Source of the DNA: Ostreococcus lucimarinus
Taxonomy: Eukaryota
DNA length: 64,000 bases
Strand: one strand, 5' to 3'
Assembly (NCBI GenBank): GCA_000092065.1
Contig: CP000582.1
Within the stretch, counting starts at the first letter, position 1; each line of letters opens with the position of its first letter. Made by a program: the position numbers and the translations under genes. Below, piece after piece: positions 8,488 through 60,150 of this stretch. Under the pieces are notes generated by a model. The model was not told the origin of the DNA and did not search any database. It saw only the letters and a program-made list of their open reading frames with translations.

Positions 8488-9738
8488 CTACTTTTTCGTC
8501 CCCTTGATCATGCCGTACGTCATCAAACCTGACTCGAACGCGCGAGCCATGCGTTCGAGGGTGACGATTTCGCGCACAACCTTGTACCACTGGCGAGGCC
8601 CGGCGAACACCACGGGCCACGGATCCCAAACCCCGACCCAGATCGAGTGACGCCACGACACGAGCGTGTTCTTCACCCAGTTCTCCGATCCCGTGCGCGC
8701 CATGGCGCCGGTGCCTCGTAAAAGACGTTCGTATTCCTCGTACGAGATAAAGTACGGGTGCGCCCACTCTTCGTAGAGAAATTGCAAGTTGCTCTTCTCC
8801 TTCTCCGTGAACTCCGGCGGCGTCTCGCGCTGACACCACGTCGCGATGACGATTTTACCACCAGGTTTTAACACTCGCACCATCTCCTCGACGTACTTTT
8901 TCTTATCCGGCATGTGCTCGCCGCTCTCGCACGCCCACACTAAATCAAACGTGTCGTCCTCGAATTCCATCGCCAGCGCATTCATCACCTGGAACTTCGC
9001 GTTCGGCACTCCTTGCTCCGCCGCCAGTTCTGTCGCGCGTTTCACCTGATTCGGCGAGAGCGTAATCCCAGTCACCGACGTGCCTTGACCGAAGCGCTTC
9101 GCCAAGTGTCGAGACGTCCCGCCGATGCCGCACCCGACGTCCAGCACCTTTGCCGGCTTATCAGCCTCGCTCCAATCCGCCATCTCGTCCACGAAATCAA
9201 ATTTGGCTTGAATGAAATCCTTCACCTTGCACCCGAGCAGCGTCCCCGCCCCTTTCGCCAGCTCCTCGTCGCTGTACCATCCCAAGTGTATGTGTTCGCC
9301 CCAGTAATATTCCAATATCCCCTCCTCCGTCCACGCGTCGTACTCCGTCCCGACCGTGTTCGCCCCGTCCACGTACGTTCGACTCGGCGTATCGAACACG
9401 TACTTTATCCCGCGTCCGACCGCGAGCGCCCCGAGCGCGATCGCCGCGTTCTCCGTCGTCGCCCAGCTCGGCGTTCGCGGCGTCGCGTTCGCGCTCGCGC
9501 CCTCGCTCGCGCGTCGCGCGCTCGTCCGCGTCTTCGCCGACGCGACGTCGCCGACCACCGCACCGCGCGCGTTTGAGCGCGGTCGCGCGCTGAGCTCTTC
9601 GATGGACAGCGCGCGCGGCGCGGGCGGCGTCTCGGCGACGGCGCGCGGATGACGTCCTCGATGACGTCGCGGCGTCGCGCGCGCGCGCGCCAGGGGCGCG
9701 CGCGCGCGCTCGGGGGCGAGGCGCGCGCTGGCGAACAT
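8488..9738 (-). CDS. MPBQ/MSBQ methyltransferase, cyanobacterial sll0418 type (plastoquinone/tocopherol; VTE3-like)
   Basis: SAM motif LDVGCGIGGTSRHLAKRFG and C-terminal WRHSIWVGVWDPWP...TYGMIKG, typical of sll0418-type MPBQ methyltransferase. Transit-peptide-like N-terminus from the ATG at 9738. Confidence 0.75.
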   Translation of the reverse strand: MFASARLAPERARAPLARARATPRRHRGRHPRAVAETPPAPRALSIEELSARPRSNARGAVVGDVASAKTRTSARRASEGASANATPRTPSWATTENAAIALGALAVGRGIKYVFDTPSRTYVDGANTVGTEYDAWTEEGILEYYWGEHIHLGWYSDEELAKGAGTLLGCKVKDFIQAKFDFVDEMADWSEADKPAKVLDVGCGIGGTSRHLAKRFGQGTSVTGITLSPNQVKRATELAAEQGVPNAKFQVMNALAMEFEDDTFDLVWACESGEHMPDKKKYVEEMVRVLKPGGKIVIATWCQRETPPEFTEKEKSNLQFLYEEWAHPYFISYEEYERLLRGTGAMARTGSENWVKNTLVSWRHSIWVGVWDPWPVVFAGPRQWYKVVREIVTLERMARAFESGLMTYGMIKGTKK

Positions 9739-9872
9739 CGTCGCGATTCGCGAGCGCGCGCGCGAGGCGCGGTGCGACGCGTGCGAGGCGCGGTGTGACG
9801 CGGACGCGAGTGGATAGAGTGCGTCCAAATGCGTTGCAAGGGACGCGACGAGACGCGACGGCGAAGAAACGC

Positions 9873-10837
9873 TCACTTTTGGCCGAACAAAGACTTGAAC
9901 GCCTTGATGGCGTTGGTGTTGATGAGCGGCTCGTCGAACTTGTCCATGAGCTCGGTGAATTCGGGCTGCTTTTGCACGAATTCCAAGCTCGGGTCGGTGC
10001 GAATCTTGCGGTAGTCGATCCAACCCGCGGACATGCATCGCTTGAGCGCGAGCAAGGATTCATCCGCCTTGCCGAGCTTGGAGAAGCAGCACGCGATGTT
10101 GTACTGAGCGACCTTGTAGATCTCCGTCGTCTTGGAAAAATCGTCACCCATGTAGTTCTTCGGTTCCAACGCCGCGACTTCCTCAAAGACGATTAACGCG
10201 TTGTCGAAATCCTTGCCGTTGTAAAGCTCGATGGCTTCGTCGAACATGTCTAATCTCTGGTTCTCCAACTCGCGCTTTTTGGAGTAGTTGTTCATTTGTT
10301 GTTCCTTCGTCCCGGCGCCGTAGTTACCACCCGCGCGTTCGCTCTTGAACGCCGAGCTCTTTTCGGTTTGTTGAAGCGCCGACAAGTCGCCGTCCATGTC
10401 CGTCATCTTCAAGTAGATGTCGCCGTTTCTATTCTTAATCGCGTACATCACCTGTCCGTACGACTCAGCGCCCCAGATCTCATCCCCGAACGACGCGCTC
10501 ACGGCTTCAATCTTATCGCCGACCTGGAATCGGTCGTAGATCGGGTCCGTGGGGACGAAGACGACGTACGCGCCGCCGTCGTTGCCTCGGTTAAACTTCA
10601 GCTCGATCGGCTTCGGGAGCGTCGCTGTGTGGAAAGGAAACGCGCGTTTCATCGTCAGTCATCGCGCGCGAACGAACACACGAAAGTGGCTCTGGGCGTA
10701 CCTTCGTACGTGTCCCCCTTGGCCGCGCGCACGACGGAGAACCGGCGCGCGATGTGCGAGTGACGTCGATCCTTGGTGAAAGTGGATAACGACGCCGTGT
10801 TGAGCGCCGCGGCGCGCTGGGCGTGCAGAGCGGACAT
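9873..10837 (-). CDS. Predicted plastid-targeted protein (PDZ-like N-region plus TPR-like C-region). Two exons: 10702..10837 and 9873..10624.
   Basis: Exon 1 reads MSALHAQRAAALNTASLSTF...RFSVVRAAKGDTYE (transit-peptide-like) and ends at the GTACGC donor; a 77-nt intron carries the ACTGAC branch and a CACACAG acceptor; the splice is in frame into ...ATLPKPIELKFN... No family assigned. Confidence 0.5.
10625..10701 (-). other. Spliceosomal intron (77 nt)
   Basis: GTACGCCCAG...GATGACTGACGATG...CCACACAG; restores the reading frame exactly. Confidence 0.6.
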
Positions 10838-30326: not shown

Positions 30327-31010
30327 TCATAACGTCGGTGCTAGCTCTCGAGCAACTCTCAAGTGCGCCTCGCGATAAAGCTCTCCGTGCTCTTTCCATA
30401 CCGGCAGGAATTCTCGCATGGAGATGTCGCCACCGTTCGCTCGATGAAACATGAGCGCGACTTCGACGCCGAGTCGCTTGTCGGCGTCTGGTATACAGAC
30501 TTCGTTCAGCGCCGTGGCGTAAGGATCTGAACCCGGAAATCCGTGAGCGCACGCGTACTTCAAACACTCCAAATGTCCATAATAGGCGGCACTCCAGCAC
30601 GTCAACTCGTCCCAAGGACACCCGTGCTCGTGCGCGTACTTCAAACACTCCAACTGTCCATACTTGGCGGCTCCCTCGCACGTCTTCTCGTCCCAAGGAC
30701 ACCCGTTCTTGCGCGCGTACTTCAAACATTCCAAATGTCCATTCACGGCGGCAGCGATGCACGTCGCCCAGTTCCAAGGACACCCGTTCTCGTGCGCGTA
30801 CTTCAAACACTCCAAATGTCCATAATAGGCGGCACCACGGCACGTCCACACGTCCCAATCGCACCCGTGCTCGCGCGCGTACTTCAAACACTCCAAATGT
30901 CCATTCTCGGCGGCATAAAAGCACGTATCGCAACCATTCTCGCAGTCATTCGTTCTTTTCTCGTCGTTCTTTTCGCGCCGTTCGCGTCGTTTTCTCGTCG
31001 TTCTTTGCAT
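30327..31010 (-). CDS. Ankyrin-repeat protein (5 x 33-aa GHLECLKYAxxxGCPWD repeats)
   Basis: Regular ANK repeats, encoded by 99-bp tandem DNA units. Confidence 0.75.
   Translation of the reverse strand: MQRTTRKRRERREKNDEKRTNDCENGCDTCFYAAENGHLECLKYAREHGCDWDVWTCRGAAYYGHLECLKYAHENGCPWNWATCIAAAVNGHLECLKYARKNGCPWDEKTCEGAAKYGQLECLKYAHEHGCPWDELTCWSAAYYGHLECLKYACAHGFPGSDPYATALNEVCIPDADKRLGVEVALMFHRANGGDISMREFLPVWKEHGELYREAHLRVARELAPTL
30540..30960. repeat. 99-bp coding tandem repeat (ankyrin units), about 4-5 copies
   Basis: Repeated tacttcaaacactccaaatgtccat... blocks. Confidence 0.8.
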
Positions 31011-43759: not shown

Positions 43760-46700
43760 ATGCGCGCGCGATGGGACGCGCGACGCGCGGGACGCGCGCG
43801 CGCGGTCGTCGCGGTCGTCGTCGCGGCGCTCGCGCTCGCGAAACGGGCCGCGGGGGCGACGCACGCGGTGACGATCGAGACGGGATCGGCGCTGAGCGGA
43901 CGACGCGACGCGGCGACGGGGACGCAGGAGGCGCTGATCATGGTGACGCACCCGGCGGACGTGACGGTGGACGAGGCGGACAAGGCGAAGCTGACGAAGG
44001 TGTTTAAGACGCAGACGGAGGCGTACTTCGCGTGGGCGTCGTACGGGGCGCTGACGCTGAACGTGTCGGTGTTCTTTCATCAGCTCGGTTCGAACGAGAA
44101 GGACGCGAACGGGGCGTGTAATCCTCACCCGGATGCGTCGGCGGCCGACGGCGTGCATTATAACCCGTGGGATGCGAGCGCTGATTTTCAAGAAGTGTAC
44201 GATTCGTACGCGGGCGACCCCGGGACGAACCGAAACTCGGGAAGGAAACACATGCGGACGTTCATGCATTTGACGAACACGTGCACGGGGACGTGCGAGT
44301 CGAACACGAACGGCATCATCTGCACGCAGAAGCACTCGTCGGTCACGGCGTGCGCCGACGCGGATTCCACGACGGAGTTGTGCGATACGACGGAGATTCA
44401 CGAGCTTTTACACGCAATCGGGCTCAAATATCACTCGGGCGGGTACAAGTGCAAGCAGTCGGATTACGACGACTCGACTACGACGTGGCGGCTCTGTGAG
44501 TACAAAGATTACGGTGGCGTCTTCGATGTCTTGGGCTCGGGCTCGGACACGTACGGGAAAAAGATGGCGTGGGGCGTTTCTTCGTATTTAAGATGGGACA
44601 TGCACTGGCTCTCTAACGATAACGTGAAAGTCATCACGAAGACCAACGGACGCGTTGACGACGACGCGGCTGATGTGAGTGAAACGTGCATCCTGAGTTC
44701 GTTGAGTGTTGATACGACGGAGTCCTCGACAACGCGCGCGTGCGTCGTTCGTTTCTCTGATGATACCATGTCGGATTTGGGTACGATCTGGCTCGAGCTT
44801 CGAAGTGGCAACAAGTTCGACAATCTTATCCTTAACGGCGAGCACAGCGGATTCAACTCTCTCGGTGTGCTCGGTTATCACGAAGGGAACAAGTTGATTG
44901 ATTTCTACCCACACGCCGCTGATTCAACAGACGCTGCGAAATACGACGACTGGGAACAGACGGCGCTGAGATCGACAGAAAACGGCGGCGTTTGGATAGA
45001 CCCCGTGTCAGGACTAAAGTTAACGGTAGCCGCGTTCGATTCAACATCTCAAACGATCACGGTTACCGTCACGTTTGGCCAACCGGCGGAGTGCAGCAAA
45101 AGAGGCGCGAAGGCGTATCCGAGTCAGTTTCTTGGCTACGGGGTGTGGCACGTCCGCATGTCAAACGACAGCGAGAAAGATAAGTATTATCCAAGCGTCA
45201 ATTTGGCCGATTATCCCGGCGACGCCTCGTCGATCACGAATGACAACTTCAGAACCAATTATTTCACGACTTCTTACTTTGATCAGTACATCCCTTATGC
45301 TGATAGCGGAATTCAGTATACGGTGCAACAAAAAGAATGCTATAAAGTCGTGCTGCAGTATAGAATGAGCGTGCAAAATTTGGATTACGGCGCGTGCGCG
45401 AAATCTCACTTGACAGTGCGCGGGTTGAATCTGCCCGCCGGTTGGCGAGTTGACGAGGGCGGATGCGTGAACGCAGCAGGCGCACAAGCAGTCGTCGACG
45501 ATATATGTTTCGTCGTCGCCGTGGACCCGAACACTGCCGATGGCGCTTACGAAATCCGAATCCAAGCCGCTCAAATCAACTACAGCGATAAAGCAGTGAT
45601 GGCGGCTACGGAGACTGTCCCACTCTGGGTTTGCGTGGGCGGATACAACCATTATACTCAAGCGTGGGGTGACAACGCTTGGACGTGTGACTACGGGCCC
45701 GTGGGATCTAAAACCAGGGTGACAGGTAGTTCTGGCACAATAATCAACCGGGCGTCGAGTACGTACGAGGCGAGCTCGACGTATTATTCGACTTCGGACG
45801 TCTCAGCGAGGAAGAGCAGCACGGCGATTCATTACACCCGGAATCCTGAGGTCACGAACGACGGCGCTGACCGTCTGCAATCAATGTCCAGTATCGCGAT
45901 CGCAGAAGTGAGCGATGATCGTTGTTATCAAGTTACGAGCACGCGATACTGCTCGGCCAACCATTACGTCTGGAGTCAGTACGTCTGTTCGGCGTGTCCG
46001 ACAGACTCAACCCGCCCTGAAGGCGATGATAGCTGGCTGGCCGACGGCGAGACACAGTGCTCGTGTCCAGACGGAACCGCTTGGTCAAACGGCATGTGTG
46101 TCCCTGCCGCCTCGTGCTCCGCGGACGAACGCGTGAACAGTGCCGGTGCGTGTGTGGCGTGTCCATCTGGCTCGACGAACGAGGCGGGTGACGTCGCACC
46201 TGGGACCGAGACCAAGTGCGCTTGCGCCGCGAACTATCGCGTGAACAGTGCTGGCGCGTGCGAGGCGTGTCCATCTGGCACGACGAACGCGGCGGGTGAC
46301 GTCGCACCTGGGACCGAGACGCAGTGCGACTCTGCCGCCTCGTGCTCCGCGGACGAACGCGTGAACAGTGCTGGTGCGTGCGAGGCGTGTCCATCTGGCT
46401 CGACGAACGCGGCGGGTGACGTCCCATCCGCGGGCGAGACGCAGTGCGCTTGCGCCGCGAACTATCGCGTGAACAGTGCCGGTGCGTGCGAGGCGTGTCC
46501 ATCTGGCTCGACGAACGCGGCGGGTGACGTCCCATCCGCGGGCGAGACGCAGTGCGCTTGCGCCGCGAACTATCGCGTGAACAGTACCGGTGCGTGCGAG
46601 GCGTGTCCATCTGGCTCGACGAACGCGGCGGGTGACGTCCCATCCGCGGGCGAGACGCAGTGCGCTTGCGCCGCGAACTATCGCGTGAACAGTGCCGGTG

Positions 46701-47653
46701 CGTGTGTGGCGTGTCCATCTGGCTCGACGAACGCGGCGGGTGACGTCGCACTTGGGACCGAGACCCAGTGCGTCTGCAATGATGGCTACTCACTTTTGAA
46801 TGGTGAGTGCGTTGAGTCAACCGAGGTTGAAGTCAAGGTTGAGTTCGCGGGAATCACACAAGTCATCGACGATACCCTCGTGCAGACGCTCCAAAACGCG
46901 CTGACGACGTCGCTTTTGGCAGACACCACTGGCGTTCAAGTGGACCCGGCTAATATCACCATTAAGTACACGATGCTAGGAAAGCAAACGTTCTCGTCCC
47001 CTGTGGATGAAAGCTCGTTCATCACCGCCGCCGCGTCGTCGTTGGGTGTCGCCACGTCTGACATTGAGAACTTTGCGCAAAGCGCGGCGCGCAGGCGTCT
47101 ACTCAGCAACATCGTGACGTATCAAGTCGTGACGACGAATAGAGCGACGTTGAACACAGCTTTGTCTGCGGCAAGCTCTCCAATCACCGTCGGCGGCGTG
47201 ACTGGAACGGGTGCCGCACCGACGACGACGATAGCCGCCGAAATCAAGACAGCGATCCCGACTTCGCAGGCGTCCACCGTCACTGCGACTCTCAATGATC
47301 CATCCTTCACTACGGATATCGCAACATCAGCCTCGAACGCGGGTGTCAGTGGTATCTCGATCTCTTCGCCGCCGTGCACTGGACTCACGCAGCCTGCGAA
47401 CGGCGTTTCTGGTACGTGCGGCTCCGAGCTCGCCAGCGGCTCGTCGTGTCAACCGACGTGCAACTCTGGGTACACCGTGAGTGGCCAGACGACATGCATC
47501 GCCGGTGCGCTCACGGCCGCGACGTGCTCGAGTAACAGCGGCTCATTATTTGGCGGCTTCTTGGGCTTAGTATCCGCCGCAGGTGTTCCGCTCTTCCACG
47601 TTGACACAATTTTGCTCGCAACGGTCGCGCTAGGCGCGCTACTCGCGCCGTAA
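43760..47653 (+). CDS. Large secreted/GPI- or TM-anchored metzincin-type zinc metalloprotease with about 7 ephrin-receptor-like Cys-rich repeats and a sushi-like domain
   Basis: Signal peptide [27 protein letters not shown]; zinc motif [15 protein letters not shown] (HExxHxxGxxH); tandem [25 protein letters not shown] modules (ephrin-receptor-like/TNFR-Cys); Ser/Thr-rich stalk; PPCTG...[17 protein letters not shown] (CCP-like); C-terminal hydrophobic tail [29 protein letters not shown]. Confidence 0.7.
46100..46790. repeat. 108-bp near-identical coding tandem repeat x about 6-7 (ephrin-receptor-like modules)
   Basis: Blocks gcagtgcgcttgcgccgcgaactatcgcgtgaacagtgccggtgcgtgcgaggcgtgtccatctggctcgacgaacgcggcgggtgacgtcccatccgcgggcgagac repeat almost perfectly at the nucleotide level. 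Confidence 0.85.
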
Positions 47654-56365: not shown

Positions 56366-56389
56366 TTCTCGGCGAGGTTCTCTACGTAC

Positions 56390-56509
56390 GATTTCCTCAC
56401 TACAACATCGCTTTTTTTTCTTCGCTACTGTCCTACTGTACTGTACAACGATTTCCTCACTACAACATCGCTTTTTTTTCTTCGCTACTGTCCTACTGTA
56501 CTGTACAAC
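56390..56509. repeat. Perfect 60-bp tandem duplication in convergent 3' UTR region
   Basis: gatttcctcactacaacatcgcttttttttcttcgctactgtcctactgtactgtacaac x 2. Confidence 0.9.
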
Positions 56510-56551
56510 TTTGTCGTGCTACACGAAACATACTCCGATCGGTTGTTCGTA

Positions 56552-58948
56552 TCATCTAAATCTACGCACGAGCGCTAAACTCAACGCGCGCGCGCAAAAC
56601 GTTTCGGCGTCGACGGGCGAATCCTCGGCGAGCGCTTGCTCGAACAATGGTGCGCTCGGCGACGACATGTTCGGTACGGTGTCGACATCGATCACGATCA
56701 TCTCACCGTTGTCTAAATTTGCAAACGCATTGACTTTCGCGTACCCTTCGACTTGTAACGCGTCGCCCACGCGTCGAGCGCGTTCGCGCACGAGCCCGAC
56801 GACGCGTTCGGACAAGACTAATTTCGATTTGTCGATCGCCGATCGACCGTCGCGCGCGCGCACGCTCGGCGTGAACGCGTGTAATTTCCCGGGTTTGTCT
56901 CCGAAGACGACGATCTCGATCTCGATCCATCGTTTCGATCCGTCGTCTGGGTCGAGGACGATTTCGCCGTCGCCGCGAATGGAAACCTCCGCGGCGTCGA
57001 AGAATGGCTCGAACACGTACCCGCGCGCGGCGAGATTCGTGCCCTCGGGAAATTGCCCGCTCGCCATCGCCGCCGCGATGGACTCCGCGTACGCGAGCAT
57101 GTCGTTGTCGTTCATCAATCGCCGCACGCCACCGAAGGACGACTTGGTCACCGGTTTCACGATTACGCCGCGCGCCGTCGCGCTCGCGCCGCCGAGCGAC
57201 CCGACGACGTCCAACCAAAGACGCTTGGCCGATTCCGCGCGCGCGCGACCGCCCCACCCGCTCTCTTCCGTCGCCTTACTCACTAACGTCGCCGTCGGGA
57301 CGAATCGCTTATTCAAACACCCCACCCCTACGTCTCGCATGTTCCCCAACGCCTTGCTCGTCGCCGCCTTGTCCGCGCACACGCGACTAGCGAGCGGACC
57401 GCATCCGGTGTACGCCGCGCCCGAGGACACGCACAGTTGTTGTAAACTCCCATCGGGTTCACCCACGACGCCGGCGTTGAACACGATGGCGCCCTCGGAG
57501 GCGGCGAGCGAGAGCAACGCGCCCAAACGCGAGACGCGCGGCGTCGCGTCGAACGCGAGCGCCGCGTCGTCGCGCGGCGGCGAAATCCATAAATACTTTT
57601 CTAATTCCGCGCGCACGCGCCGAGCGGTGGCGAAGCGCCCGAGGTCAGGCATGCGCGGCGGAACGTCCGCGGACGACCACTGCGCGGGATTCACCGCGAA
57701 CGCGTACGGTAGCCGCCACGCCGGGGCGTCGACGAGCCCGTTTGAGTTCGCCGCGGGCGGCATCAAGAGCACGGGCGTGACGTCAATCGTCGGGATGTTT
57801 CGAAGCGTCAAGTATAAGTTACGCCCGGCGTAGCACGAACTCAGGCGATCGCCGCCCGACGCGGCGCCGCCGAAGAGAACGTACACGCGCATCGACGCCG
57901 AACTCGTCGAAGCGGGCGCGGGCGCGGGCGCGGCGACGATTTTCCTCGTCGACGCCTCGCGGCTCGTCGCGTTCTTCACCAAGTGTTCGATCACGGACTC
58001 CATGGACAGACCCACGGCCGCGGCGTGCACGAACATCTTCGACCACGCCCTCGCGGTTCCCGAGACCGGCGAATCGGAAAGCTCGACGCGCACGAAGGAG
58101 GTCGCCGGCGCCGAGGTCGAAGTCGCCGCCTCGTCTTCGTCTTCGTCTTCGTCTTCGTCGGCGTCGTCTTCATCTTCCTCGACGCCGTCGTACGCCACCG
58201 CGCCTTCATCACTCGCCGCGCAACTCACCAACCGCCCGCCTCGAACGTCGAAATCGCGCGACCCCGCGGCGTCCGCGAACGCGGCTTCCGCGCGCGCGCG
58301 AATCGCCGCCGCCACGAGACGCGGGTACCGCGTCGTCGATTCCACGTCCAACGCCACGCACGGCCGCTTCCGCGACCGCGTCGTCGACAGCGTCGTGACG
58401 TAAAAATCAAACCCCGCCGCGCCCTCGTCGCCGTCGCCGTCGTCGAAATCGCGCGAAGTCGCCCTCGCCGCCGCCCGCGCGCGTCCCGCGCGCGCGTCCC
58501 CCGTCGTCGCCAGCGCGCAATCCGCCCACGCCCCGTCGTCGCCGCGCGCGACGACGACCGCCTCGCACCGCGCCCCGACGCGCGCGTTCACGCACGCCGC
58601 CATCGTCGTCGCGTGCGCGAGCGCGTCCGTCCCCGCGCGCGAATCGCCGTCGCTCGGAAACACCGCGATCGTTTTCCGCCCGTCCGACGTCGTCGCCGCG
58701 CACCGCGCGCGTCGTCGCGCGAACGCGCGCGGTGCGCGCGAATCGCCGTCGCTCGGAAACACCGCGATCGTTTTCCGCCCGTCCGACGTCGTCGCCGCGC
58801 ACCGCGCGCGTCGTCGCGCGCCGCGCGTTCGTCCGCTTTGGTGCGGCGCCCGCGCCGGCGCGCGCGCGAGCCGCATCGACGCGCGCGACGCGATGTGCGT
58901 CGTCGTCGAAAAAGTGCACTTTTTCGCCCGTCCCGAATGGATTCGCAT
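56552..58948 (-). CDS. ddl: D-alanine--D-alanine ligase homolog (ATP-grasp), plant DDL-like; start uncertain
   Basis: Ddl-type N-domain MRVYVLFGGAASGGDRLSSCYAGRNLYL and C-terminal ATP-grasp end EGYAKVNAFANLDNGEMIVIDVDTVPNMS, with a second partial Ddl-like module upstream. Possible ATG at 58948 or 58603. Contains a 99-bp internal tandem duplication. Confidence 0.6.
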   Translation of the reverse strand: MRIHSGRAKKCTFSTTTHIASRASMRLARAPARAPHQSGRTRGARRRARCAATTSDGRKTIAVFPSDGDSRAPRAFARRRARCAATTSDGRKTIAVFPSDGDSRAGTDALAHATTMAACVNARVGARCEAVVVARGDDGAWADCALATTGDARAGRARAAARATSRDFDDGDGDEGAAGFDFYVTTLSTTRSRKRPCVALDVESTTRYPRLVAAAIRARAEAAFADAAGSRDFDVRGGRLVSCAASDEGAVAYDGVEEDEDDADEDEDEDEDEAATSTSAPATSFVRVELSDSPVSGTARAWSKMFVHAAAVGLSMESVIEHLVKNATSREASTRKIVAAPAPAPASTSSASMRVYVLFGGAASGGDRLSSCYAGRNLYLTLRNIPTIDVTPVLLMPPAANSNGLVDAPAWRLPYAFAVNPAQWSSADVPPRMPDLGRFATARRVRAELEKYLWISPPRDDAALAFDATPRVSRLGALLSLAASEGAIVFNAGVVGEPDGSLQQLCVSSGAAYTGCGPLASRVCADKAATSKALGNMRDVGVGCLNKRFVPTATLVSKATEESGWGGRARAESAKRLWLDVVGSLGGASATARGVIVKPVTKSSFGGVRRLMNDNDMLAYAESIAAAMASGQFPEGTNLAARGYVFEPFFDAAEVSIRGDGEIVLDPDDGSKRWIEIEIVVFGDKPGKLHAFTPSVRARDGRSAIDKSKLVLSERVVGLVRERARRVGDALQVEGYAKVNAFANLDNGEMIVIDVDTVPNMSSPSAPLFEQALAEDSPVDAETFCARALSLALVRRFR
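58637..58834. repeat. 99-bp tandem duplication (x2) inside the 5' part of the ddl-like ORF
   Basis: aatcgccgtcgctcggaaacaccgcgatcgttttccgcccgtccgacgtcgtcgccgcgcaccgcgcgcgtcgtcgcgcg repeated, encoding RARCAATTSDGRKTIAVFPSDGDSRA twice. Confidence 0.8.
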
Positions 58949-59984
58949 TCACAGACGCGCGCGCAGTCGAGATTCCGGATTCGGCGCGCGCGCGAACGAA
59001 CGCGACGGAGGCGTGCGGCGTGAGCGTGAGCGTGAGCGGGACCGTGAGCGTGAGCGGGACGTGATGAATGAAGGGCGCGTGTGGTGCGCCTGCAGAAATT
59101 CGTGACGACGCGTGCGCGACCGTCACGGGGTATGGAATTTAGTTTTCAACCAGCAATATTCCAAGCTCAGTTAAGACTTCACAGCTTTGGATATAACCCC
59201 ATGCGCAAAGATGCGACGCGGGACGCGCGGGACGCGCGGGTGATGGGACGCGTGGACGCGATGGCGATTTCGAGGTTATGGGTCAGGGCGTGCGATGGGC
59301 GTCGCCGCGCGCGGCGCGCGGTCGCGCGCGACGAAAGACGCGTCGGTCGGCGCGAGACGACGACGACGTCGTGCGTCGCGCGTCGTCGTCGTCGTCGTCT
59401 CGCGTCGTCGTCGTCGTCGTCGCGCGCGTCGTCGTCGCGGGAAAACGCGGCGACCGACCGAACGACACACTCGCGCGCGGCGCCGACGCGCGCGACGAAG
59501 GTGGTGATTTTTTACCACGGGTAGAATAAATTGGTTGAATCTCCTTGAATGGAATATAAAAAGGGTTGTATGTGGTAAAAGGCAACAGACAAGCACCTCG
59601 TTCTTATACTCCGGAGCGTTCGAGGGACGACGCCGCGCGCGGCGATCGGGTGCGCGCGCGACGGGGCCGGGGCGATTTCGAGGTTACGGGCGCGAAACAC
59701 GGCGCGCGCGACGGCGCGCCTCTCGTGCGCCGACCGATGCGTCGCGCGCGCGCGAACGGTCGCGCGCGGTGCGTCGACGCGCGACGCGCGCGCGACGCGA
59801 CGCGCGCGCGCGATACCGTCGAGCGCGCGTCGATGGATCGCGCGCGCCGTCGACGTCGACGCGCGCGCGCGTCGACGACGCGCGCGCGGCGCGTCGGCGT
59901 CGGCGTCGGCGCGACCCGTAACCCGCAAACGCGCGCGGCGACGTCGCGAATGCGTCTGGGGGGGGCGCGCGCGACTTCGCGCGC

Positions 59985-60150
59985 ATACTTACCTGCGCCG
60001 AACTCTATCTGATCATGAAGGGGTAGAGTTGCGCGAATCCGTGGCGCCTTGCACTTCGCGCACACGTATTCGCGTCGTTCGTCGCCTAACGGGGCGAACG
60101 GGGCGACAATTTATTCCAGGGTGAGACCGGCGTTCGCGCTACTCGCCATC
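59985..60150 (+). ncRNA. U1: U1 small nuclear RNA gene
   Basis: 5' end ATACTTACCTG (pairs with a CAG|GTAAGTAT 5' splice site). Stem-loop I AACTCTATC / TGATCATGAAGG / GGTAGAGTT, whose loop matches the U1-70K site GAUCA(C/U)GAAGG. TTGCAC U1A-type loop. AATTTATTCC Sm-like site. 3' hairpin GGCGTTCGCGCTACTCGCC containing CGUUCGCGCU identical to human SL4. Length about 165 nt. Confidence 0.7.

Follow-up and report, generated by a model that had tools for sequence, protein, structure and literature searches.

Within a 64,000-nucleotide stretch of contig CP000582.1 of the alga Ostreococcus lucimarinus (assembly GCA_000092065.1), in the following referred to as the window, the minus strand carries a gene derived from Ddl, the D-Ala-D-Ala ligase (EC 6.3.2.4), an enzyme of peptidoglycan precursor synthesis. 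The open reading frame (ORF) of this DDL-like gene lies exactly where a preliminary description of the DNA had placed it. Residues 116-798 of its product are 100% identical to XP_001416315.1 (UniRef A4RTG6) of O. lucimarinus CCE9901, which is annotated as "predicted protein" and as "ATP-grasp domain-containing protein" and which van Baren et al. (2016; PMC4815162) give as the Ddl of O. lucimarinus in their Table S5. The window thus stems from CCE9901 or from a strain that cannot be told apart from it. According to the same work, three Ostreococcus species and Bathycoccus have kept DDL and MURE alone of the peptidoglycan pathway, and MurF, MraY, MurG, MurA-D and PBP are reported absent from Ostreococcus (PMC4815162). 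Therefore, the presence of the gene is not new, and the bacterial-type Ddl homolog in an algal nuclear genome that the preliminary description pointed out is already published for exactly this gene. The neighbors are eukaryotic, namely a DEAH helicase gene and genes for the small nuclear RNAs (snRNAs) U1, U4, and U5. What is new here is the evidence for a catalytically eroded but conserved derivative: judged from its sequence, the O. lucimarinus protein is probably a pseudoenzyme that is retained under selection, with a neutral and still segregating duplication in its N-terminal leader. In open-access text, we found no paper on the degeneracy of this protein. The parts of the gene that bear on its function are the following.

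56552..58948, minus strand: maximal ORF of the DDL-like gene, 798 amino acids, with the stop codon at 56552-56554.
57947..58411, minus strand: vestige of Ddl unit 1, residues 180-334, matching residues 233-400 of the canonical algal DDL P0018 (hhalign probability 96%, E 4.3e-9).
58103..58192, minus strand: acidic low-complexity insert (Asp/Glu run) within the vestige, residues 253-282, predicted to be disordered.
56555..57898, minus strand: Ddl unit 2, residues 351-798, with a complete three-domain Ddl fold as predicted from the profile search against PDB, the AF2 model, and Foldseek.
57440..57481, minus strand: remnant of the HG-x-GEDG-x-LQ motif, FNAGVVGEPDGSLQ, in which His63 is missing and Glu68 is replaced by Pro.
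56846..56851, minus strand: place at which the omega loop is deleted, between residues 700 and 701; the EEKFQGGTG segment with the Lys215/Tyr216 equivalents is absent.
56669..56737, minus strand: degenerate catalytic and Mg2+ motif with K738, N740, D754, D756, and N760, as placed by the alignment.

The preliminary description had credited the protein with clear Ddl signatures, which is overstated. A Pfam scan returns Dala_Dala_lig_C (PF07478) alone, with 13.4 bits against a cut-off of 24 and an E-value of 0.056, and no match to PF01820. The best Ddl model of NCBIfam, NF002528, reaches 33 bits against a cut-off of 262, and TIGR01205 reaches 32 bits against 246, so that the protein stays far below the cut-offs that define the curated Ddl families (PF01820 together with PF07478, and TIGR01205). 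The Ddl ancestry itself, however, holds on the grounds of the family profile and the predicted fold. A profile built from 17 homologs and run against PDB gave 31 matches, all of them Ddl or VanA, with a best E-value of 2.5e-12. The AF2 model has a mean predicted local distance difference test (pLDDT) value of 63, with unit 2 mostly at 70-90, and a Foldseek search of PDB with this model likewise found Ddl/VanA structures at all top 50 positions (E-values down to 3e-15, target template modeling scores 0.65-0.79), from which a three-domain Ddl/ATP-grasp fold can be assumed for unit 2. Similar to the bacterial DdlB and DdlA enzymes and the VanA-type ligases (PDB 2dln, 8evv, 3e5n, 1e4e), which form the only PDB family matched by the profile, the protein has this fold in unit 2, but the identity to them is no more than 14-19% and the catalytic residues of DdlB are not kept. 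Furthermore, an exhaustive HMMER search yielded 1,625 relatives. Here the representatives of the family itself are followed by the Micromonas pusilla-like P0018 (523 bits), P0020, P0022, and many DDLs of about 800 amino acids, and a land-plant DDL (Coffea, P0027) is also among the matches. Among the matches examined, the closest relatives outside the family are thus the tandem-fused DDLs of Viridiplantae. An identity as cyanophycin synthetase or glutathione synthetase, which the preliminary description had named as the finding that would speak against a Ddl, is rejected, as all 31 profile matches and all 50 top fold matches are Ddl/VanA.

In plants, DDL is built as a fusion of two Ddl units (PMC9954125), and canonical algal relatives such as P0018 show the Pfam domains N and C twice in succession. 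The protein of the window agrees with these canonical tandem DDLs of algae and land plants in the order of its parts, with the C-terminal domain of unit 1 ahead of a full unit 2. It differs from them in that the first ~230 residues of their unit 1, which comprise the N-terminal and central domains, have no counterpart in it. Two complete units are not found, since the last ~40% of unit 1 alone is detectable; residues 116-179 match nothing. The upstream Ddl-like half mentioned in the preliminary description therefore does exist, but only residues 180-334 match unit 1 and it is a vestige of ~155 residues rather than a half unit. Of a canonical unit 1, this vestige covers the final beta strand in the central domain together with the C-terminal domain. 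It has a gap of 37 residues at the omega-loop region, and does not keep the catalytic Arg, Asp, and Asn positions. In the AF2 model its pLDDT is about 70-86 outside of the acidic insert.

For the active site of unit 2 we aligned six canonical eukaryotic unit-2 sequences and nine members of the family with Escherichia coli DdlB, the sequence of which was confirmed to be the same as that of PDB 2dln/1iov. All six canonical sequences keep E15, H63, E68, K97, K144, E180, E187, K215, R255, D257, E270, and N272, and five of them keep G276, which is Ala in P0036. In the window protein the positions of DdlB correspond to the following residues.

E15: D367.
H63: deleted.
E68: P498.
K97: K527, kept.
K144: K598, kept.
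E180: E647, kept.
E187: E676, kept.
K215/Y216 of the omega loop (Phe instead of Tyr216 in the plant type): deleted after residue 700.
R255: K738.
D257: N740.
E270: D754.
N272: D756.
G276: N760.
S281/L282: A766/P767.

Hence the protein retains the ATP-binding residues equivalent to Lys97, Lys144, Glu180, and Glu187, but neither the catalytic Arg255 with the exact Mg2+ ligands Asp257, Glu270, and Asn272 nor the D-Ala-binding residues Glu15, His63, Gly276, and Ser281/Leu282. Unit 2 still shares with the canonical tandem DDLs the motifs L-x-DA-x-x-[FW]RL-x-YA, GSLQ, VFG...PS, [VI]EG[FY]A, and LF-x-QALA, whereas it differs from them by the absence of R255, the omega loop EEKFQGGTG, G276, and H63 and by the exchanges D257N, E270D, and N272D. 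R255, the omega loop, and G276 are missing in nine of nine family members, the R255 position being occupied by K, V, S, S, Q, S, or A, and same-locus relatives in at least six Ostreococcus-like lineages are all without R255 and the omega loop. The ATP-binding residues are variable in the other family members, and at the would-be ATP and Mg2+ positions some lineages have D or V for K97, S or T for K144, A or S for E270, and R for E187. Since these residues vary between lineages, an ATP-dependent mechanism shared by the whole family appears doubtful. One sub-group (P0017, P0019, P0390) keeps HGG-x-GEDG and the D/E/N triad, motifs that the Ostreococcus members have lost, which suggests a stepwise erosion of the active site. 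From established structure-function work on DdlB it is known that the omega loop closes the active site, that Arg255 is catalytic, and that G276 is the oxyanion glycine. Measured against these roles, canonical D-Ala-D-Ala ligase activity is unlikely, and the working peptidoglycan-precursor enzyme implied by the preliminary description is contradicted by the change or deletion of the catalytic Arg, the omega loop, three Mg2+ ligands, and the oxyanion Gly.

Despite these losses the gene is kept intact. The ratio of nonsynonymous to synonymous substitution rates (dN/dS) is taken from the comparison with L002 only, the closest informative relative, a lineage with 92-94% amino-acid identity, because synonymous sites are saturated against O. 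tauri, L004, and L005 (dS 1-1.9); p-values are from one-sided binomial tests. Across unit 2 (residues 346-798), 29 differences are synonymous and 10 are nonsynonymous, at a dN/dS of 0.11 (p = 2e-10), which means that unit 2 is under purifying selection. The unit-1 vestige with the linker (residues 116-345) is less constrained, with a dN/dS of 0.50 and 27 synonymous and 41 nonsynonymous differences (p = 0.009). Moreover, none of the full-length lineages examined has a broken ORF, its length being roughly 740-800 codons, and long invariant blocks are found at an overall identity of 42%, among them the family-specific motifs WGG, KRLW-x-D, and a C-terminal RR[FY]R. The locus is conserved as well: the DDL-like gene, two unknown genes, and then RRF and Wheel follow each other in the window and L001, in O. 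tauri, and in L004, L005, and L008. Judged by RRF and Wheel identities and a GC content of 57-59%, the distance of the latter three from Ostreococcus is comparable to that between O. tauri and O. lucimarinus, and M. pusilla is far removed from them. The canonical DDLs P0018 and P0022, in contrast, lie in a different conserved neighborhood, Syja_N-DnaJ-Rad10-DDL...AMMECR1. The degenerate and the canonical types, which were not seen together in any of the genomes covered, may be either orthologs, separated by relocation and degeneration, or old paralogs.

Towards its 5' end the gene carries a leader with an internal repeat and several possible start codons.

58946..58948, minus strand: first in-frame ATG (M1), a possible start, 128 bp past the 3' end of the U4 gene.
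58874..58876, minus strand: second in-frame ATG (M25, MRLARAPARAP...), the start in most metagenome gene calls.
58604..58876, minus strand: N-terminal leader, residues 25-115, neutral at the amino-acid level.
58734-58820, minus strand: copy 1 of the repeat, exact over 87 bp and 5' of copy 2 in gene orientation.
58722-58733, minus strand: filler of 12 bp between the copies, encoding PRAF and matching neither flank.
58635-58721, minus strand: repeat copy 2, 87 bp, 100% identical to copy 1.
58603..58605, minus strand: ATG of M116 (MAACVNARV...), downstream of the repeat, at which the RefSeq model begins.

M25 is the most likely start as far as can be read from the sequence. It is conserved as MALARAPSRAS in L002, where a further in-frame ATG lies ~21 codons upstream of MALARAP. 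The leader is rich in Arg, Ala, Thr, and Ser, has no acidic residue within residues 25-55, and is probably an organelle-targeting presequence; all homologs have long leaders rich in Arg, Ala, Ser, and Thr. Compared with L002, residues 25-115 have 13 synonymous changes next to 29 nonsynonymous ones and a dN/dS of 0.95 (p = 0.5), and the RefSeq coding sequence begins only after this region, in agreement with the possibility raised in the preliminary description that the N-terminal region is without strong constraint. Such neutrality fits a transit peptide as well as untranslated sequence. The end of the U4 snRNA gene at 59076 bounds the 5' end of the DDL-like gene, and O. tauri has the same U1-U4 arrangement, with the first ATG 163 bp after U4. 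As an alternative that concerns the repeat alone, translation could begin at M116 and the duplication would then lie in the 5' untranslated region (UTR) or the promoter. This is the start of the RefSeq/JGI model, it agrees with the lack of amino-acid constraint on the repeat region, and in DNA of ~70% GC chance alone would, by our own estimate, leave a frame of 90 codons open with a probability of about 0.17, which is not rare. We nevertheless consider it rather improbable, as the frame from the upstream ATG is open in every lineage checked (L001, L002, O. tauri), the indels of 99, 96, and 21 bp all being multiples of three, and the start M[RA]LARAP and an R-K-x-I-A-V-F-like motif are weakly conserved. 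The long leaders of the homologs from other lineages also speak against it, and a plastid protein would be expected to need a presequence, which MAACVNARVGARCEAVVVARGDDG does not resemble. Translation of the leader as a presequence is thus the likelier case. The O. lucimarinus model XP_001416315, with its start at M116, and the O. tauri model both look truncated at the N-terminus. The latter (BE221DRAFT_188098, 494 amino acids), at the locus L003 7251-9485, omits an in-frame upstream region which codes not only for the leader but also for the unit-1 vestige, and this is the reason to regard it as truncated.

At the protein level the repeat appears as ARRRARCAATTSDGRKTIAVFPSDGDSRA at residues 44-72 and 77-105, in frame and separated by the spacer PRAF. 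The preliminary description had reported a perfect duplication of 99 bp at 58637-58834, of which the period of 99 bp and the preserved frame are correct; the perfection, however, does not extend over 99 bp, the exact self-match being 87 bp followed by the filler of 12 bp. Tandem Repeats Finder (TRF) calls the array at 58635-58827 with period 99 and score 370. An exact repeat of 87 bp is far beyond chance. It is not an assembly artifact either, because the same two-copy N-terminus is found on independent metagenome contigs in the proteins P0175, P0176, and P0001, which differ elsewhere by 2-4 residues. Other metagenome proteins (P0185, P0181, P0186, P0187, P0182) have a single copy and are otherwise near-identical, and contig L001 carries a third allele, with two copies of different boundaries, while the other ~2.1 kb of the gene differs at 9 positions only. 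Two-copy, one-copy, and differently bounded two-copy alleles therefore exist in genes whose remainder is >99% identical, and the region is a hotspot of recent length polymorphism. L002 has one copy as well, so that near-identical adjacent copies are present here and absent from close relatives, as for a recent tandem duplication. The insertion of 99 bp, consisting of 87 duplicated bp and the filler of 12 bp, is thus recent, preserves the frame, and still segregates as a length polymorphism. Since it lies in the unconstrained leader, little can be learned from it about what the mature protein does, and as a duplication it is ordinary, a neutral length polymorphism of use at most as a strain marker.

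The junction sequence CGCGCACCGCGCGCGT, which comprises the filler and four flanking bases, matches in reverse complement, without any mismatch, 16 nt within each copy (58796-58811 and 58697-58712, near the start of each copy). This suggests that a template switch, and not plain slippage, was the origin; given the CG-richness, however, chance could also account for the match. A second perfect tandem duplication, two copies of 60 bp, is located at 56388-56509 just past the stop codon of the DDL-like gene, in a convergent intergenic region of 186 bp or the 3' UTR, and is single-copy in L001 and L002. The strain thus has two fresh tandem duplications less than 2.5 kb apart, and these are the only two-copy arrays with 97-100% identity and a TRF score >150 in the window. 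Older arrays lie at 46104-46777 (units of 108/228 bp, x6/x3, 88% matches), at 30541-30915 (units of 81 bp, x4.6, 81% matches), and at 1907-2053 (units of 24 bp, x6, 96% matches).

Directly upstream of the DDL-like gene, between this gene and that of the DEAH helicase, is the cluster of snRNA genes.

59076-59212, minus strand: U4 snRNA, 88 bits.
59501-59618, minus strand: U5 snRNA, 48.7 bits (gathering score 40).
59985-60147, plus strand: U1 snRNA, 86 bits.

In O. tauri, U1 and U4 are found at the same position (L003 6435-6598 and 6953-7088). A metagenome gene call of 261 amino acids in the equivalent snRNA region of L001 (4920-5705) is probably spurious. Overlapping ORFs on the plus strand, for example 56511-57833 and 57983-59023, are regarded as presumable consequences of the high GC content, as both the homologs and the signs of selection favor the minus-strand frame. 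In the canonical neighborhood with Syja_N, DnaJ, Rad10/ERCC1, DDL, ..., AMMECR1, tandem DDLs of Micromonas-like algae are present at L006 5085-7919 and L007 10001-12739. In L007 the main gene is adjoined by a separate call of 190 amino acids (9445-10017) that contains a Ddl N-domain, and therefore the DDL of L007 is probably longer than its call of 912 amino acids.

Taken together, the catalytic residues are lost and yet unit 2 is under purifying selection, and it is for this reason that we regard the protein as probably a retained pseudoenzyme and not as a working enzyme of peptidoglycan synthesis. Its ancestor would have been the plant and algal fusion of two D-Ala-D-Ala ligase units, which was then presumably hollowed out in Ostreococcus-like (Bathycoccaceae-type) lineages. 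Unit 1 would have been reduced to the vestige, and unit 2 would have kept the Ddl fold and lost the catalytic Arg, the omega loop with Lys215/Tyr216, the exact Mg2+ ligands, the oxyanion Gly, and the residues that bind D-Ala1. D-Ala-D-Ala is then most likely no longer made, and the protein may have taken on a role other than that of a ligase, for example in binding or scaffolding, with the plastid as its probable site. A loss of activity would fit the reported absence of MurF and of all peptidoglycan genes but MurE, besides DDL, in these algae.

Several points weigh against this reading. The equivalents of K97, K144, E180, and E187 survive in the O. lucimarinus protein, and the residues that replace the Mg2+ ligands and the Arg (N, D, D, and K) are chemically similar to the original ones, so that some residual or altered ATP-dependent chemistry is conceivable. 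The positions of E180 and E187 were mapped by way of the algal unit-2 sequences only, as DdlB itself is misaligned there, and the AF2 model is only moderate with its mean pLDDT. In addition, the RefSeq start lies downstream of the repeat, and the repeat may therefore be untranslated.

Among the alternatives, most weight goes to an ATP-grasp ligase with a new function, which would still use ATP but join different substrates. The retained Lys and Glu residues of the ATP-grasp site in O. lucimarinus and the acidic or amide residues at all three Mg2+ positions are in line with it, and so are the strong selection on unit 2 and the family-specific invariant motifs. A mechanism shared by the family should, however, have conserved the would-be ATP and Mg2+ residues, which instead vary between its members, and the loop that bears the Lys binding the gamma-phosphate is gone in all of them, so that this alternative is unlikely. 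Even less likely is a D-Ala-D-Ala ligase that still works and supplies a cryptic plastid peptidoglycan. For angiosperms with only four peptidoglycan genes it has been proposed that peptidoglycan is still made (PMC9954125), and the fold, the specific Ddl homology, the kept ATP-binding residues next to conservative changes at the Mg2+ site, and the selection on unit 2 might be read in the same direction. But no family member keeps R255 or the omega loop with K215/Y216, the residues G276, H63, and E15 have gone, the scores with the curated Ddl models are far too low, and MurA-D, MurF, MraY, MurG, and PBP are reported as absent from Ostreococcus. A decaying pseudogene left over from the lost pathway is rejected, for although the catalytic residues are lost, unit 1 is truncated, residues 116-345 are under relaxed constraint, and the leader is under none, the ORF is intact in every full-length lineage, unit 2 is strongly constrained, long blocks are invariant at only 42% overall identity, and the syntenic position is conserved.

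A precedent for a retained pseudoenzyme of this kind can be seen in angiosperm MurE, a gene of the peptidoglycan pathway that is kept with an altered role after loss or change of the pathway. Plants with an AtMurE knockout are pale green, and the moss gene does not rescue them (as summarized in PMC9954125). Ostreococcus keeps exactly MurE and the DDL-like gene described here, and a link between the two proteins would be a matter of speculation. We tentatively suggest, at somewhat less than even chances, that Ostreococcus and its relatives, being past the loss of plastid peptidoglycan, possess a catalytically dead DDL derivative as a conserved pseudoenzyme with a new role, which presumably acts in the plastid and possibly together with the orphaned MurE. 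Arguments on the question in which algae and plants a plastid wall is still built, and on the persistence of orphan genes such as DDL and MurE, draw on tables of the presence and absence of peptidoglycan genes. Should our reading be true, an entry "DDL present" for these algae in such a table would not be equal to D-Ala-D-Ala synthesis, and the presence of a gene could not be read as the presence of the reaction. Moreover, O. tauri would then offer a compact and genetically tractable system for what a peptidoglycan enzyme does after the wall has been lost.

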